DNA from: an uncultured virus (IMG/VR IMGVR_UViG_3300037010_002878)
Lineage: Duplodnaviria > Heunggongvirae > Uroviricota > Caudoviricetes
Length of the DNA: 64,000 nucleotides
Direction: 5' to 3' (one strand)
IMG/VR virus record: IMGVR_UViG_3300037010_002878
Span: 1-64,000 of that record
Below the pieces are notes generated by a model that was given only the letters and a program-made list of their open reading frames with translations, ran no database searches and was not told where the DNA came from. Shown piece by piece: positions 1 to 6,893 of this stretch. A program made the position numbers and the translations under genes. Position 1 is the stretch's first letter; the number at the start of each line of letters is the position of its first letter.

Positions 1-21
1 GGGGAATCAAATTCCCCTTTA
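1..21 (-). terminator. Intrinsic terminator-like hairpin downstream of Asn-rich leader ORF (3' tail cut off by window edge)
   Basis: Minus strand AAAGGGGAAT-TTG-ATTCCCC: 7-bp G/C-rich stem about 10 nt after the leader stop. Any U-tract would lie outside the window. Confidence 0.65.
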
Positions 22-29
22 AAGAAAAC

Positions 30-173
30 TTAGATTGAAGTGTTCTGTAAAGAAGAATTATTTAACCATTGTTGGCATTGCCCCAACCCAGCTAAATTTA
101 GTAGATTATTGCGGAGCACGTTATTACGATTTGCTGCGTTGATATTAACGATGTTGTTGTTTACGTTATACAT
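30..173 (-). CDS. 47-aa Asn-rich putative leader peptide (not in ORF track)
   Basis: Manual translation MYNVNNNIVNINAANRNNVLRNNLLNLAGLGQCQQWLNNSSLQNTSI*. RBS AAGGAG 7 nt upstream, promoter at 240-261. Confidence 0.7.
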   Translation of the reverse strand: MYNVNNNIVNINAANRNNVLRNNLLNLAGLGQCQQWLNNSSLQNTSI

Positions 174-239
174 TTACGTGCTCCTTATTTTTATTTTATT
201 TATTGTTTGAAAAATTACTTTTTCTTTTTATGTATATGT

Positions 240-261
240 ATTATAACACAATATACCTTAA
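240..261 (-). promoter_or_regulatory. Host-type sigma70 promoter TTAAG-N11-TATAAT (extended -10) driving Asn-rich leader
   Basis: Minus strand TTAAG gtatattgTGt TATAAT; the same motif recurs at 8 other sites. Confidence 0.7.
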
Positions 262-342
262 AGTTGGATTAAATTTATTAACTTTTGTGAAAGACTTTTC
301 ATTTAAGAAAATATTGCCCTTCATAAAAATTAATTAAAGGTT

Positions 343-426: not shown

Positions 427-510
427 TGGTGGGTATGGTTGGACTTGAACCAACAGTCAGAAAGAACGGTTTTACAGACCGCGCGGCTACCAATTACCGG
501 TTACACACCC
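427..510 (-). tRNA. trnY: tRNA-Tyr(GTA) copy 1
   Basis: Cloverleaf GGGTGTG/CATACCC, loop CTGTAAA, long variable arm, GTTCAAGTC T-loop, encoded CCA. Confidence 0.93.
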
Positions 511-667: not shown

Positions 668-741
668 TGGTGCTCGTACCCAGAGTTGAACTGGGGTTAC
701 GCCGTTATAAGCGGGGCGCTCTACCATTAAGCTATACGAGC
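668..741 (-). tRNA. trnI: tRNA-Ile(TAT), rare AUA-reading anticodon
   Basis: GCTCGTA/TACGAGC acceptor, anticodon loop CT-TAT-AA, T-arm CCCAG-TTCAACT-CTGGG, ACCA end. Confidence 0.9.
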
Positions 742-783
742 ATATAAAATGTTTCGTATATCAGATATGTCTGTTTCCATCAT
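727..783 (-). CDS. Mini-ORF (17-18 aa) with three ATA codons, overlapping the 5' end of tRNA-Ile(TAT)
   Basis: AAGGAG-cat-ATG ATG GAA ACA GAC ATA TCT GAT ATA CGA AAC ATT TTA TAT GCT CGT ATA GCT TAA = MMETDISDIRNILYARIA*. Confidence 0.5.
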   Translation of the reverse strand: MMETDISDIRNILYARIA

Positions 784-1797: not shown

Positions 1798-1873
1798 TGG
1801 TTGCTGTTGCAGGAGTTGAACCTGCTGTCTCTGGGTTATGAGCCCAGCGGCGAAACCGTTTGCCCCTACAGCT
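1798..1873 (-). tRNA. trnM: tRNA-Met(CAT), initiator-like
   Basis: Loop CT-CAT-AA, three G-C pairs in anticodon stem (CTGGG/CCCAG), 1:72 mismatch, CCA. Confidence 0.88.
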
Positions 1874-1885
1874 ATATAAAATTTT

Positions 1886-1960
1886 TGGTCCTCGATGATT
1901 GAATCGAACAATCATTTTGCGATTATCGGTCGCATGTACTAACCGTTGTACGAATCGAGG
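1886..1960 (-). tRNA. trnI: tRNA-Ile(GAT) copy 1
   Basis: Stem TGCGA/TCGCA, loop CC-GAT-AA (C33), CCTCGAT/ATCGAGG acceptor, ACCA. Confidence 0.88.
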
Positions 1961-1965
1961 ATGAA

Positions 1966-2048
1966 TGGTGGTTAGGTGTGGTTTCGATCCACTCCCGTAA
2001 AGACAGGTTTTACAGACCTGTTGCCAGAGCCACTGGCTTTACCTAACC
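1966..2048 (-). tRNA. trnY: tRNA-Tyr(GTA) copy 2
   Basis: GGTTAGG/CCTAACC acceptor, CAGGT-CTGTAAA-ACCTG, long variable arm, ACCA. Confidence 0.9.
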
Positions 2049-2053
2049 ATATA

Positions 2054-2127
2054 TGGTGCCCAATGACTGAATCGAACAGTCGACAACTGATTACAAATCA
2101 GTTATTATACCTCTTAACTAATCGGGC
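2054..2127 (-). tRNA. trnT: tRNA-Thr(TGT)
   Basis: Loop TT-TGT-AA in ACTGA/TCAGT stem, GTTCGATTC T-loop, ACCA. Confidence 0.92.
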
Positions 2128-2139
2128 ATTTTATCTTTT

Positions 2140-2232
2140 TGGAGGGCAATGTCGGGTACGATCCGACAAGAGTTTTTTAGGCTCTGCTAGTTTTCAAGAC
2201 TAGTGCAATTATTCCATTTCTGCCAATTGCCC
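2140..2232 (-). tRNA. trnS: tRNA-Ser(TGA)
   Basis: Loop CT-TGA-AA in CTAGT/ACTAG stem, long variable arm, GGGCAAT/ATTGCCC acceptor, CCA. Confidence 0.88.
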
Positions 2233-2237
2233 ATGTT

Positions 2238-2311
2238 TGGTAGTTCTAGAAGGTACTGACCCTTCGTCTATCCCTTATCAAGGGATTACTCTGCCATTGA
2301 GCTATAGAACT
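2238..2311 (-). tRNA. trnI: tRNA-Ile(GAT) copy 2
   Basis: ATCCC-TTGATAA-GGGAT, AGTTCTA/TAGAACT acceptor, atypical T-loop GTCAGTA, ACCA. Confidence 0.87.
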
Positions 2312-2319
2312 ATTTGTTT

Positions 2320-2394
2320 TGGCGATCTTGAGGAATTTTGAAATCCCGACCCTTCCGCTGACAACGGAGCACTCTGCCTCTGAGCTACAAGATC
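2320..2394 (-). tRNA. trnD: tRNA-Asp(GTC) copy 1
   Basis: Loop TT-GTC-AG, GATCTTG/CAAGATC acceptor, G discriminator, CCA. Confidence 0.88.
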
Positions 2395-2405
2395 ATTTAA
2401 ATTAT

Positions 2406-2482
2406 TGGTGGAGAATACGGGTTACGCTCCCGTCTTCCTACGTTGCAAGCGTAGAGTAATCAACCTAATATACTAATTCCCC
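2406..2482 (-). tRNA. trnA: tRNA-Ala(TGC)
   Basis: Loop CT-TGC-AA, acceptor GGGGAAT/ATTCTCC with the G3:U70 Ala identity pair, ACCA. Confidence 0.92.
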
Positions 2483-2642
2483 ATTTTTAAATTTCATTTT
2501 TACGACCCTTAAGACAACCTAAATTTTTTCATATTCAGGAAAAGATTCTTTTTCTTTATTTTCTTATTTCAACATTGAATTATTAGTTTCCCATTTAAGG
2601 TACTTACAACGTTCGCTACGTGAAAGCTAATTCTTGAACGTC

Positions 2643-2714
2643 CGGTCCCACGGGGAATTGAACCCCGATCTCATGGCTGACAACCACATATAATAACCAC
2701 TATACGATGAGACC
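2643..2714 (-). tRNA. trnD: tRNA-Asp(GTC) copy 2 (no encoded CCA)
   Basis: Loop TT-GTC-AG, GGTCTCA/TGGGACC acceptor, CGGGG-TTCAATT-CCCCG T-arm, G73. Confidence 0.85.
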
Positions 2715-2726
2715 ATTTTAAATTTT

Positions 2727-2802
2727 TGGTAACACTAACGGGGCTCGAACCCGTAACATATCCTTGAAAGGGATATAAGATAACCTATTTCTCCATAGTG
2801 TC
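2727..2802 (-). tRNA. trnE: tRNA-Glu(TTC)
   Basis: TATCC-CTTTCAA-GGATA, GACACTA/TAGTGTT acceptor, ACCA. Confidence 0.9.
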
Positions 2803-2812
2803 ATTTAACAAT

Positions 2813-2901
2813 TGGTGGTCAGTCTTGGAGTCGAACCAAGAGTCCTTACGAAACCGGGTTACAGCCGGTGCACCTATCCAGTTAGTGTTGATTAACTGAC
2901 C
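2813..2901 (-). tRNA. trnY: tRNA-Tyr(GTA) copy 3
   Basis: ACCGG-CTGTAAC-CCGGT, GGTCAGT/ACTGACC acceptor, long variable arm, ACCA. Confidence 0.88.
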
Positions 2902-3030
2902 ATTCTTTGAGAAGTTTTAAGTAAACTCTCGTAAAAGACTGCTAATTCAGAACACAATAAACTCGCGTTATATTGTACTTAAAATGAAATAATTGATTGA
3001 ATTTGTCCGAATGGACTGAGGATTCATTCA

Positions 3031-3068
3031 ATGTCTTTCATTTCTGAAAGACATAAATGACTTTCAGA
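3031..3068 (-). promoter_or_regulatory. Mutually exclusive hairpins (putative attenuator) right after leader-peptide stop
   Basis: Minus strand TCTGAAAG (3068-3061) can pair with CTTTCAGA (3050-3043). This competes with the perfect 10-bp hairpin ATGTCTTTCA-GAAA-TGAAAGACAT (3054-3031). Confidence 0.6.
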
Positions 3069-3194
3069 TTAGATAATATCTGTCTCCGATGCAATCGCAT
3101 CCGTTTCAGAAATAGAGTAGGCATAGGTATAATCAGATGTGTTTACTGATGTATATGATATTACATTTACTGTTGAGTACATTGTGTAAATCAT
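3069..3194 (-). CDS. 41-aa putative leader peptide of the tRNA operon (not in ORF track)
   Basis: MIYTMYSTVNVISYTSVNTSDYTYAYSISETDAIASETDII*. RBS AGGAG 7 nt upstream, promoter at 3229-3250. Confidence 0.75.
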   Translation of the reverse strand: MIYTMYSTVNVISYTSVNTSDYTYAYSISETDAIASETDII

Positions 3195-3228
3195 TTTGTT
3201 TCTCCTATGTTTCTTTTTATATGTTGTT

Positions 3229-3250
3229 ATTATATCATATGTTACCTTAA
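3229..3250 (-). promoter_or_regulatory. Promoter TTAAG-N11-TATAAT for leader plus tRNA array
   Basis: Minus strand TTAAG gtaacataTGa TATAAT. Confidence 0.72.
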
Positions 3251-3285
3251 AATAACATTAAATGATACAAATCTTTTTCTTTTAT

Positions 3286-3672
3286 TTATTGTTTGAAAAA
3301 TACGTCCGTTGCAATTTTAGCATACAAATTATAGTTAAGATCTTTCAATTCCAATTGTTCAATAACGTCTAAGGCTTTATTCTTAGTAAGTGTTGGAAAC
3401 GACAAATCAATATTGTTTGCCAAATATTCTTTTATTTCTTCTAAAGAAATTGTAGCGCTGAACTTGCTTGTGTTTTCATTTACTTCTTCATTTAAACGTT
3501 CTAATACAAGTTCACGTCCTACTTTTTTTGAAAACATATCTTTGCTTGAGCAGACTGAACATGCCAGAAACAATGAATCATCATTGTACATCCATCCCAA
3601 GGTGACACCGCCTTTATTACCTTCAAATTGAAAGTGTTTAAATCTTGTATTATCCAATGTCGCTGTTAACAT
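3286..3672 (-). CDS. Hypothetical phage protein (CxxxDxFxKKxGR motif)
   Basis: 128-aa ORF with RBS AAGGA and own promoter (3702-3723). Confidence 0.75.
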   Translation of the reverse strand: MLTATLDNTRFKHFQFEGNKGGVTLGWMYNDDSLFLACSVCSSKDMFSKKVGRELVLERLNEEVNENTSKFSATISLEEIKEYLANNIDLSFPTLTKNKALDVIEQLELKDLNYNLYAKIATDVFFKQ

Positions 3673-3754
3673 TTTGTTTCCTTCTTATTTTAAATTATGT
3701 TATTATATCAGCACTTACCTTAAAATCTTATAAATAAAACAAAAAGGAGGGAGT

Positions 3755-4734: not shown

Positions 4735-5778
4735 ATGTATGAAAATTCAATAGTAGTAGTAAAAAATTGTACATCAACCGGCATAGATGTAATTCCTATT
4801 AATTCATTAATATTAAATAAAGATACTGGTGATATTTTTTTATTAACAAATAAAACAAACGTATCATCTACTACACAATTTTGTGATGTAGTAGGTAAAG
4901 TATTAATCGCTAGTCTTGTTATAAGTGGAGCATTGTTTTATGGCGGTAGTAATAATATAAATCTAAATTTAGCTACCATGCTATCAGCAACGGCTACATT
5001 AGTTCAAGCTGAAAAGAGTGTAGGTACAGCTAGATATGGATTAGCTGGAGCTAACGTAGGTACAAATGCTTTATTTTATGGTGGATATACTACAACATAT
5101 GTATCTACCACTACTTTATTATCACCAACAATTAATTTAGTACAATCAGAGACTAATGTAGGTACAGCTAGGGCTACCCCAGCTGGGGCTAAGGTTGGTA
5201 CAAATGCTTTATTTTACGGTGGTGCCGTTGATTCAAGCTATTATGGGGTAGATACCGTAACATTACTATCACCAACAGCTACATTAGTTCAAGCTGAAAC
5301 AAATCTTGGAACATCTATGTACTCATTAGCTGGAGCTAACGTAGGTACAAATGCTTTATTTTATGGTGGAGCTAATTATGGAAGCTATAATACAGCTTCT
5401 GTAGTATCTCCATTGGGCGTCTTAGTATCTCAGTCTACTAATATAGGTACAGCTAGATTTGGCCTAGCAGGAGCAAATGTTGGTACGAATGCTTTATTTT
5501 ATGGTGGAATACAAATCTGGCCCACTGTTCTCAATACAACTACTTTGTTATCACCGACGGCTGTTTTATTACAAGCTGAAACAAGTGTTGGATCAGTAAA
5601 ATGGTCAAATTCTGGAGTTAATGTTGGTACAAATGCCCTATTTTATGCTGGGTGTAATGATGCATCAACAACATTTATCAATACTACTACACTACTATCA
5701 CCTACCGCAACATTAGTACAGCCAGAGACTAATGTTGGAACATCAGGCCGTCATTACTTAGGAGGAGCATTAATATGA
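4735..5778 (+). CDS. Kelch-like beta-propeller repeat virion protein 1
   Basis: About six ~47-aa repeats ALFYGG-x-TTLLSPTATLVQAETNVGTARYGLAGANVGTN. Confidence 0.75.
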   Translation: MYENSIVVVKNCTSTGIDVIPINSLILNKDTGDIFLLTNKTNVSSTTQFCDVVGKVLIASLVISGALFYGGSNNINLNLATMLSATATLVQAEKSVGTARYGLAGANVGTNALFYGGYTTTYVSTTTLLSPTINLVQSETNVGTARATPAGAKVGTNALFYGGAVDSSYYGVDTVTLLSPTATLVQAETNLGTSMYSLAGANVGTNALFYGGANYGSYNTASVVSPLGVLVSQSTNIGTARFGLAGANVGTNALFYGGIQIWPTVLNTTTLLSPTAVLLQAETSVGSVKWSNSGVNVGTNALFYAGCNDASTTFINTTTLLSPTATLVQPETNVGTSGRHYLGGALI

Positions 5779-6893
5779 GTTTTGAAAGACAGTCTCTTGT
5801 TGTTTTTAAAGATGAGTCATCAACTGGAATAAACTTTGTTGCAAATAATAGATTTGTATTTGTGAACTCAACTGGATATATGTATATTAAAGTTAATTCA
5901 ACTAATATCACTACCAATACCACCATAGCACAAGCAATTTCAGGTGCAAATTTAATTTTAATAACTGGAGTTATTCCTGCTCCACCAACAACGACAACAA
6001 CGACAACAACGACAACAACGACAACAACTACTACAACAACGTCAACTAGTTTTACCAAAGCTTTATTTCATAATGGGATAGATAGTTCACCAACAAGTGT
6101 ATCAACAACCACATTGTTATCTTCAACGGCTACTTTAGTTCAAGCAGAAACTTCAGTAGGTACAGCAAAATTTGGCGTAGCAGGAGCCAATGTTGGTACA
6201 AATGCATTATTTTATGGCGGAACAGATAATTCTTATTATTACAACACAGTTACATTATTATCACCAACTGCGACATTGGTTCAAGCTGAGTCTACTGTTG
6301 GGTCAGGAAGAAGTTATATATCTGGAGCAAATGTTGGTACAAATGCACTATTCTATGCTGGGTACAATTCTGGATATAAGAATACGGCAACAATATTGAC
6401 ACCTACTGGTTCATTGGTTCAAGCTGAGTCAACTGTAGGAACAGTGAGAACTGGAACGGGTGGAGCCAATGTTGGTACAAATGTATTATTTTATGGTGGA
6501 ACAAATGGTTCATATTTTAATACAGCAACACTGTTATCATCAACAGCTACTTTGGTACAAGCGGAATCAAATGTTGGCACAGCACGGTCATATACTGCTG
6601 GAGCTAATGTTGGTACGAATGCTTTATTCTACGGTGGGTATAATGGTTCATACTTAAATACAGCAACACTGTTATCATCAACAGCTACTTTGGTACAAGC
6701 TGAATCAAATGTTGGTTCTACTAGACTTGGACCAGCAGGAGCTAACGTAGGTACAAATGCTTTATATTATGCTGGGGCTAATAGTGTTAAATTAAATACT
6801 GCTACATTATTATCGCCAACAGCTACTTTAGTTCAAGCAGAAACTAATATAGGTAGTACACCTAGACATGGACTCGCAGGATCTAGTTTATAA
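5775..6893 (+). CDS. Kelch-like beta-propeller repeat virion protein 2 with poly-Thr linker
   Basis: Same N-domain and six repeats; PAPP-T18 linker. Confidence 0.78.
   Translation: MSFERQSLVVFKDESSTGINFVANNRFVFVNSTGYMYIKVNSTNITTNTTIAQAISGANLILITGVIPAPPTTTTTTTTTTTTTTTTTTSTSFTKALFHNGIDSSPTSVSTTTLLSSTATLVQAETSVGTAKFGVAGANVGTNALFYGGTDNSYYYNTVTLLSPTATLVQAESTVGSGRSYISGANVGTNALFYAGYNSGYKNTATILTPTGSLVQAESTVGTVRTGTGGANVGTNVLFYGGTNGSYFNTATLLSSTATLVQAESNVGTARSYTAGANVGTNALFYGGYNGSYLNTATLLSSTATLVQAESNVGSTRLGPAGANVGTNALYYAGANSVKLNTATLLSPTATLVQAETNIGSTPRHGLAGSSL
5988..6041 (+). repeat. ACAACAACG-type microsatellite encoding poly-Thr
   Basis: About four 9-bp units in an 18-codon Thr run. Confidence 0.9.

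Follow-up and report, generated by a model that had tools for sequence, protein, structure and literature searches.

The subject of this work is a short open reading frame (ORF), leader ORF 2, at the left edge of a 64,000-nucleotide stretch of viral DNA (the window; positions 1 to 64,000 of IMG/VR record IMGVR_UViG_3300037010_002878, an uncultured virus of the Caudoviricetes), which lies on the minus strand between a promoter-like site and an array of 12 tRNA genes and whose residues and codons mirror the tRNAs of that array. A sister unit, leader ORF 1, precedes a second tRNA array within the window. The match in composition and codons between the two leaders and their arrays is far beyond chance, and we give an even chance to the reading that each leader is a ribosome-read attenuator, which ties transcription of its tRNA block to the speed at which the block's own codons are decoded.

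Window position 1 is also base 1 of the 76,397-base virus record, i.e. a contig end, and the completeness of the record is estimated at ~51%. The phage carries a T4-type major capsid protein and is T4-like, with Vibrio phage Va1 (51% identity in the capsid protein) and then Campylobacter phages (~48%) as its nearest cultured relatives. The adjacent left window, in which an earlier reading of this DNA (the sequence-only reading) had proposed to look for tRNA genes, does not exist, as the window starts at the first base of the record; the leftward sequence is supplied instead by two IMG/VR contigs (L005 and L006), which were retrieved with an exact 52-mer from window positions 1-52, have 0 mismatches to the record across all overlapping bases and extend it by 9.5-10 kb to the left. 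Phage-wide counts refer to a sequence total of 90.6 kb.

The leader ORF 2 unit and its tRNA array

All parts of the leader ORF 2 unit are on the minus strand. A promoter-like site of the extended −10 type (TTTAAGGTA-N5-TGNTATAATA, 239..262) matches the promoter motif perfectly, aligns with the site upstream of leader 1, and is followed by the Shine-Dalgarno (SD) sequence AAGGAG (181..186), 7 nt ahead of the ATG, and by leader ORF 2 itself (30..173; ATG at 173..171, TAA at 32..30), which consists of 47 codons and a stop (MYNVNNNIVNINAANRNNVLRNNLLNLAGLGQCQQWLNNSSLQNTSI). The ORF is situated 66 nt downstream of the −10 element and 142 nt upstream of the first tRNA and is thus, as in leader-peptide attenuators, a short ORF with its own ribosome-binding site between a promoter and the downstream genes. 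Its predicted product of 47 residues contains 15 Asn and lacks K, E, D, F, H and P, and its codons include CGC, CTC, GGG (twice), TGC and CAG, along with three for Val. The promoter, the AAGGAG, the Asn-rich ORF and the G+C-rich codons that the sequence-only reading had listed are all present.

Downstream of the ORF, a terminator-like hairpin (1..23) is formed by UUUAAAGGGGAAU (23..11), a UUG loop (10..8) and AUUCCCC (7..1). Its core, GGGGAAU (17..11) paired with AUUCCCC, begins 12 nt past the stop of the ORF; the stem had been foreseen correctly, at a distance of about 10 nt. In L005 and L006 the hairpin lengthens to a 13-bp stem (UUUAAAGGGGAAU/AUUCCCCUUUAAA), the last 6 pairs and the tail of which lie outside the window. 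Two further pairings connect the ORF with its flanks, and both had been predicted exactly and appear in the minimum-energy fold (MFE). The anti-SD segment ACGUGCUCC (113..121, codons 18-21) forms 9 perfect pairs with GGAGCACGU at 184..176, which belongs to the leader's own ribosome-binding site, and region 1, AAUUCUUCUUUA (48..59, codons 39-42), the 5' strand of a putative antiterminator, forms 12/12 pairs (2 of them G-U) with the hairpin 5' arm at 21..10.

Beyond the left edge, 12 tRNA genes start 142 nt after the leader-2 stop. ARAGORN reports, in order, Asn(GTT), Asn(GTT), Val(TAC), Cys(GCA), Gly(TCC), Gly(GCC), Leu(CAA), Leu(TAG), Leu(AAG), Gln(TTG) and Leu(TAA), and the twelfth, Trp(CCA), is added by Rfam (48.1 bits) and by ARAGORN at a relaxed threshold. 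A second tRNA array off the left edge, serving Asn, Leu, Gln, Arg, Gly, Cys and Trp, had been predicted from the composition of the leader before this sequence was seen. The array is there, and all seven isotypes are present, six of the seven in one array; Arg(ACG) stands apart from it, and Val had not been foreseen.

Several tRNA genes of this array are unusual in form. The first tRNA-Asn(GTT) (L006 9802-9888, minus strand; 112-198 bases left of window position 1) is 87 nt long, has a long extra arm and no encoded CCA, and scores below the Rfam gathering threshold for tRNA; the combination of a long-arm body with an Asn anticodon is unusual. Of the four Leu tRNAs, three (TAA, AAG and CAA; L006 8802-9233, minus strand) are just 76-78 nt long, without the long variable arm usual for bacterial tRNA-Leu, and one of these has A at the first anticodon position.

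The leader ORF 1 unit

Leader ORF 1 has 41 codons (3069..3194, minus strand) and is preceded by a promoter-like site (3228..3251, minus strand) with the same motif as that of leader 2; like leader 2, it also has a strong SD. It is followed by array 1 (1802..2897, minus strand), which consists of Tyr, Glu and Asp, a 159-nt gap, and then Ala, Asp, Ile, Ser, Thr, Tyr, Ile and Met(CAT). The array was called by ARAGORN at default settings, with Tyr (1966-2048) and Met (1802-1872) added at the relaxed threshold, and most of its genes are supported by Rfam.

Two details of array 1 stand out. The anticodon loop of tRNA-Ile(GAT) (1886-1960, minus strand) reads by eye as CCGAUAA, with C in place of the near-universal U33. 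Within the 159-nt gap (2483-2641, minus strand) 70 nt are retained with 4 differences in a relative from public run X7 (see below) despite rearranged neighbouring tRNAs, and the gap may carry an element of its own.

The window contains 7 copies of the promoter motif, where 0.55 would be expected; 0/100 shuffles reach 7, and a third perfect copy stands ahead of a 128-aa ORF upstream of leader 1. Across IMG/VR the motif is found at 35 loci, 7 of them on this phage's three contigs; among the other loci, tRNAs are present solely in one (L019), where they are not behind the motif. Four motif-sharing contigs contain no tRNA, and two of these are ~72% identical to the window in DNA over ~1.1 kb. The promoter region is repeated a third time at 65504-65539, inside a coding region, and this copy was set aside.

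Composition and codon match between leaders and arrays

The match was evaluated against the phage's own 75 ORFs of at least 120 aa as protein background, and against all 403 ORFs of 30-80 aa in six frames as a null set of small ORFs. In leader 2, 35/46 residues after the start belong to the set {N,V,C,G,L,Q,W,R} (background 0.353, binomial 1.9e-8), whilst 35/40 residues of leader 1 belong to {Y,E,D,A,I,S,T,M} (background 0.473, binomial 1.3e-7), and the cross-table of leaders by arrays gives a Fisher p of 1.9e-9. Each leader ranks first of the 403 small ORFs for the set of its own array, and random windows of phage proteins reached the value of either leader in 0/200,000 draws. The two leaders are also the sole two of the 403 that are without K, F, H and P, and no tRNA for any of these four was seen in the 90.6 kb. 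That the composition of leader 2 complements that of leader 1, as had been proposed, is borne out in the main, with the exception of 11 residues of leader 2 that belong to the other array.

The correspondence extends to codons. All 86 non-start codons of the two leaders (46/46 in leader 2) fall in boxes for which the phage has a tRNA (background 0.784, P = 8e-10), an imperfect match in that ACC and GCC in leader 1 would be decoded only with relaxed wobble. The Leu anticodons CAA, TAG, AAG and TAA are matched by the leader codons TTG, CTA (twice), CTC and TTA (three times); CTC, present in leader 2, makes up 1.5% of the phage's Leu usage. The Ser codons of the leaders are TCN in 10/10 cases, which fits Ser(TGA), and both Arg codons are CGY, which fits Arg(ACG), though AGA accounts for 65% of the Arg codons of the genome. 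The residues of leader 2 run in an order that correlates with that of the tRNAs in its array (rho 0.51, p 0.001).

Similar units in phiCbK-like phages

The same leader-finder, at p < 1e-3, returned no leaders in T5 (0 of 6-7 blocks), Va1 (0/6), Aswh_1 (0/6) and A3Wally (0/7). A comparable arrangement is found in Brevundimonas phage Gurke, where an SD-led ORF of 45 codons has 29/44 residues in the set of the next block (Pro/Lys/Leu/His/Ala/Ser) and is followed by a canonical terminator. In the phiCbK-like set examined (n = 8: Gurke, phiCbK, Colossus, Bajun, Rogue, CcrPW, Domovoi and CcrSC) all eight phages have a homologous ORF of 35-44 residues that stops 113-120 nt ahead of the first tRNA-Pro; scored for the set of its block, it takes rank 1-5 among 136-322 ORFs. 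The ORF is annotated as a hypothetical protein in four records (phiCbK gp335, Rogue gp349, CcrSC gp541 and Bajun 02440), and in the phiCbK record the stretch from such ORFs to the tRNAs is annotated with predicted rho-independent terminators.

The leaders of these phages appear to vary with their blocks, in contrasts that rest on few independent events. CcrSC alone of the eight has a Trp tRNA in the Pro/Lys/Leu/His/Ala/Ser block, and it alone has W in the leader. A second conserved leader, before a Val/Ile/Gln block, contains 2, 3 and 3 Asn where an Asn tRNA is downstream versus 1 and 1 where there is none, and 2 and 3 Phe with a downstream Phe tRNA versus 1, 1 and 1 without.

The phiCbK-like units resemble those of the window in their succession of promoter, ORF of 38-45 codons rich in the block's amino acids, hairpin and tRNA block. 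They differ in belonging to an unrelated, G+C-rich siphovirus lineage, in having canonical terminators with U-runs, and in a looser fit, with Thr abundant in the phiCbK leader; the phiCbK genomics paper (PMC3556154) reports no Thr tRNA, and its searched passages have 0 occurrences of 'leader' and of 'attenuat'.

A further small ORF of these phages, observed on the side, precedes a Glu/Asp tRNA pair (L055 5270-5390; also L054, L056 and L058-L061). It has ~20 codons, a conserved core (..YEREA..G.DT..) and a hairpin, and has E or D at 3/20 residues only; it is conserved as a sequence and is not a mirror in composition.

These data bear on whether the leaders of the window could encode small peptides that have some function by themselves, or could be chance ORFs, whose likeness to the arrays is coincidental or a by-product of low-complexity, A+T-rich sequence. 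The leader-2 peptide is indeed of low complexity, with runs of AAC and AAT, and a search of 5.8 billion proteins returned one candidate (1/1), the peptide itself, and no other homologue. Such an origin is nevertheless very unlikely in view of the first rank of each leader among the 403, the blind prediction of the array, the failure of cross-assignment between leaders and arrays, the 86/86 codons in served boxes, and the recurrence of the architecture in an unrelated G+C-rich phage family.

In-frame change in a relative

Public runs X5 and X7, which are labelled RNA-Seq and are probably DNA, contain a relative that is ~93% identical across the leader-2 region. Its comparison with the window is one of listed differences, outside of which lie 336 substitutions and 31 indels. 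Among the listed differences, three indels fall inside the two ORFs and are of +3, +6 and +3 nt, adding Ile, Asn-Asn and Ser by position, whereas 8/9 of those outside the ORFs are not multiples of 3. Leader 2 has three listed replacements (I11V, A13V and A14V), each of which shifts a residue from the set of the other array to that of its own, and the fourth listed change (CTC to CTT) leaves the amino acid unchanged and the anti-SD pair intact as G-U. In the X7 relative, the 295-aa ORF that lies between the two arrays of the window is absent, with 166 other letters in its place, and array 1 is rearranged.

Queries for closer relatives with this region, by the 295-aa and 150-aa neighbour proteins, by an alignment of the 295-aa protein with its 3 homologues and by a tRNA 29-mer, gave just the same phage. 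A degenerate leader-start pattern had 0 matches in metagenome contigs, and no RNA run is recorded among the listed holders of the sequence.

RNA folding and alternative structures

The leader-2 RNA folds better than 100/100 shuffles (z = -4.2), and its anti-SD helix is found in both the MFE and the centroid fold, with -17.9 kcal/mol for the local helix. The leader-1 fold has z = -3.85, and its SD is partly paired with codons 23-24. An SD-sequestering helix in both leaders could, on the evidence of these folds, confine initiation to the moment of transcription.

Strong folds and an SD paired in the MFE would also be expected if the region were not translated at all and served as a structured 5' part of the tRNA precursor, for instance in processing or stability, with an incidental reading frame. 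This we regard as highly improbable, since a canonical AAGGAG stands 7 nt from the ATG, the frame is open for 47 codons in DNA of 30% G+C, and the listed indels are in frame in 3/3 cases inside the ORFs versus 1/9 outside; structure alone, moreover, cannot give the match to amino acids and codons.

For an attenuator read by the ribosome, the relevant structures are the hairpin and the region-1 antiterminator, which are mutually exclusive and of equal predicted stability (-15.5 kcal/mol each). Constrained folding was carried out with a 28-nt ribosome mask and with the transcript ending where the 3' arm is just completed. With the ribosomal A site at codons 6, 18, 27 or 34, or with no ribosome at all, the antiterminator has 12/12 pairs and the hairpin 0/7; an A site at codon 40 or the stop gives 7/7 for the hairpin and 0/12 for the antiterminator. 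The proposal of the sequence-only reading, in which the antiterminator is available only when the ribosome stalls earlier, thus holds in silico, as masks at codons 6-34 and at codon 40 or the stop switch the fold.

The hairpin itself was placed in a survey of stems of at least 7 bp with at least 4 G-C pairs that are followed by TTT. There are 6 such sites on both strands of the 90.6 kb, none of them within a long ORF, and the leader-2 hairpin makes up 2 of the 6, one per strand. It has 4 G-C pairs in its core, 13 bp in total and the tail UUUAAAU (UUUAAAUGAC).

Proposed mechanism

The analysis shows the ORF with its signals, the tRNA array, the agreement of the two in composition and codons, and the alternative structures; from these we infer translation, termination and a direction of control. 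Transcription would start at the TGNTATAATA promoter, and a ribosome would load at AAGGAG before the anti-SD segment is made, a step for which both loading and timing are assumed. A ribosome slowed at Asn, Val, Leu, Gly, Gln, Cys or Arg codons among codons 2-34 would leave region 1 free to pair with the 5' arm of the hairpin, and the polymerase would continue into the 12-tRNA array. On fast decoding the ribosome would cover region 1 and reach the stop, the GGGGAAU/AUUCCCC hairpin would form just ahead of it, and some transcripts would end at the UUUAAAU tail. Slow reading of a block's own codons, as under scarcity or depletion of host tRNAs, would in this way raise the output of that block, and an ample supply would lower it.

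A number of observations weigh against this mechanism. The first concern termination after leader 2. The tail UUUAAAUGAC, at the place where the sequence-only reading had asked for a U-tract, is weak, with 3 U before AAA, and fails a criterion of 5 T in 8; a terminator scan lists no site after either leader. In the constrained folds the model yields read-through without translation, unlike trp. Leader 1 raises other difficulties, as the survey of the 90.6 kb contains no hairpin of the leader-2 type for it. It has alternative hairpins directly after the stop, the switch of which (A+C versus B) goes in no clear or even the opposite direction, and its order is not colinear with array 1 (rho -0.08). 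Because leader 1 is without such a hairpin and the direction of its switch is indistinct or reversed, one mechanism may not fit both units.

Others concern the match and its distribution. Leader 2 takes 11/46 residues (A, I, S, T and Y) from the set of the other array, both of its Gly codons are GGG despite two Gly tRNAs downstream, and the tRNA-Arg(ACG), on the same strand, is outside the contiguous array, 1.07 kb beyond it and past two ORFs. A fourth copy of the motif, in L028, drives a tRNA-Leu(TAA) without a matched leader, and Va1, the closest cultured relative by capsid protein, has no such leaders. The unlisted differences in the X5/X7 comparison add to this side, and the pairing of the SD, in both leaders, with a segment 60-80 nt inside the ORF counts on both sides, in favour as a shared trait and also against.

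Some of these points fit better with a leader that is translated and relevant to its array but acts by another route or in the opposite direction. Decoding could license expression by preventing a block, Rho entry or an RNase cut, or stalling could alter the processing or stability of the tRNA precursor. The weak U-tail and the lack of a scan-listed terminator after either leader are consistent with this. For a ribosome at the stop of leader 1, the predicted fold has hairpin B in place of A, and the long hairpin that precedes UUUUAAG is opened, the opposite of leader 2; downstream of the leader-2 hairpin there is a second, AU-rich hairpin (-11.8 kcal/mol) followed by UUUUACCUU, a tail shared with a hairpin right after the capsid gene. 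We nonetheless hold this main alternative, another route or direction, to be unlikely, as it would imply a positive feedback on tRNA supply without obvious benefit, the G+C-rich hairpin is located exactly where a ribosome at the stop frees it, and the phiCbK-like phages have canonical G+C-rich, U-run terminators between leader and tRNAs.

Comparison with known attenuators

The attenuator reading has its closest parallel in the multivalent leader attenuators of enterobacteria (thrL and ilvL/ivbL; also trpL, hisL, leuL and pheL), in which a short SD-led ORF is followed by mutually exclusive hairpins that are set by the position of the ribosome; in the trp leader a similar helix sequesters its own ribosome-binding site. 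The units of the window share with these an SD-led ORF behind a promoter, codons tied to the product of the operon, the putative sensing of several amino acids and hairpins predicted to exclude each other. They differ in that tRNA genes, not genes for biosynthesis or transport, are downstream, that a whole set of 12 tRNAs is mirrored down to isoacceptor codons, and that the tail is weak. T-box elements, which bind uncharged tRNA directly, choose between terminator and antiterminator without an ORF and control synthetase and amino-acid genes, resemble the window element in that gating by the state of a tRNA is proposed for the latter too, with the difference that the latter is based on an ORF. 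At gathering thresholds, Rfam gave 20 matches in L006, all of them tRNA, and no His, Leu, Thr or Trp leader and no T-box. A search of the literature available to us yielded no description of leader ORFs, or of attenuation, upstream of tRNA genes in phages.

Neighbouring features

Between the two arrays lie, in order, the 295-aa ORF, a terminator-like hairpin, an 18-codon ORF, a tRNA-Ile(TAT) and a tRNA-Tyr. The 18-codon ORF (727..783, minus strand) is led by AAGGAG, contains 3 ATA codons and overlaps the start of tRNA-Ile(TAT) (668..741, minus strand; ARAGORN, Rfam tRNA 65.1 bits) by 15 nt. With 5/17 residues in {Ile, Tyr} against a background of 0.11 (p = 0.03), this ORF before a tRNA that reads ATA may, marginally, be a third and minimal leader. 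The tRNA-Tyr(GTA) (427..510, minus strand; ARAGORN, Rfam 44.4 bits) is the final gene of this short middle unit, upstream of the leader-2 promoter.

The 295-aa ORF (875-1762) has merely 3 homologues among 5.8 billion proteins, at 86, 78 and 66% identity. On the plus strand at 4735-6893, two adjoining ORFs of 347 and 372 aa contain repeats of ~45 residues with a recurring GANVGTNALFYGG-like motif, and one of them also contains a run of 17 Thr; these are probably fibre or decoration proteins.

In L028, an ORF resembling HNH-type endonucleases (3004-3753, minus strand) ends in or beside a tRNA-Met(CAT), a placement common for homing endonucleases in such regions of phages. Elsewhere on the same sequence (~40-160, minus strand), inspection by eye shows what resembles the 3' portion of a tRNA (T arm, acceptor strand and CCA) directly ahead of a matching stretch that resembles the 5' portion (acceptor strand and D arm); the two could be a permuted or broken tRNA gene.

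Implications for phage tRNA genes

Phage tRNA genes are commonly regarded as constitutive cargo, which adjusts codon usage or makes up for tRNAs lost in infection. In the phage described here, a 47-codon ORF foretold the content of a tRNA array that had not been seen, and leaders of this kind would flag small 'hypothetical' genes in tRNA regions as regulatory elements. A direct test at the bench is feasible, as the same layout also occurs in phiCbK, a phage of the model bacterium Caulobacter.

We suggest more tentatively, at somewhat less than an even chance, that many unrelated viruses gate each tRNA block with a ribosome-read 'test gene' written in the block's codons, an undescribed class of sensor. 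If this is true, a phage would answer scarcity of host tRNAs, including depletion by host defences that cut tRNA, by activating exactly the set of tRNAs that has run short. A mirror leader would make tRNA output self-adjusting and specific to each block, and would extend leader-peptide attenuation from the supply of amino acids to the supply of tRNAs.

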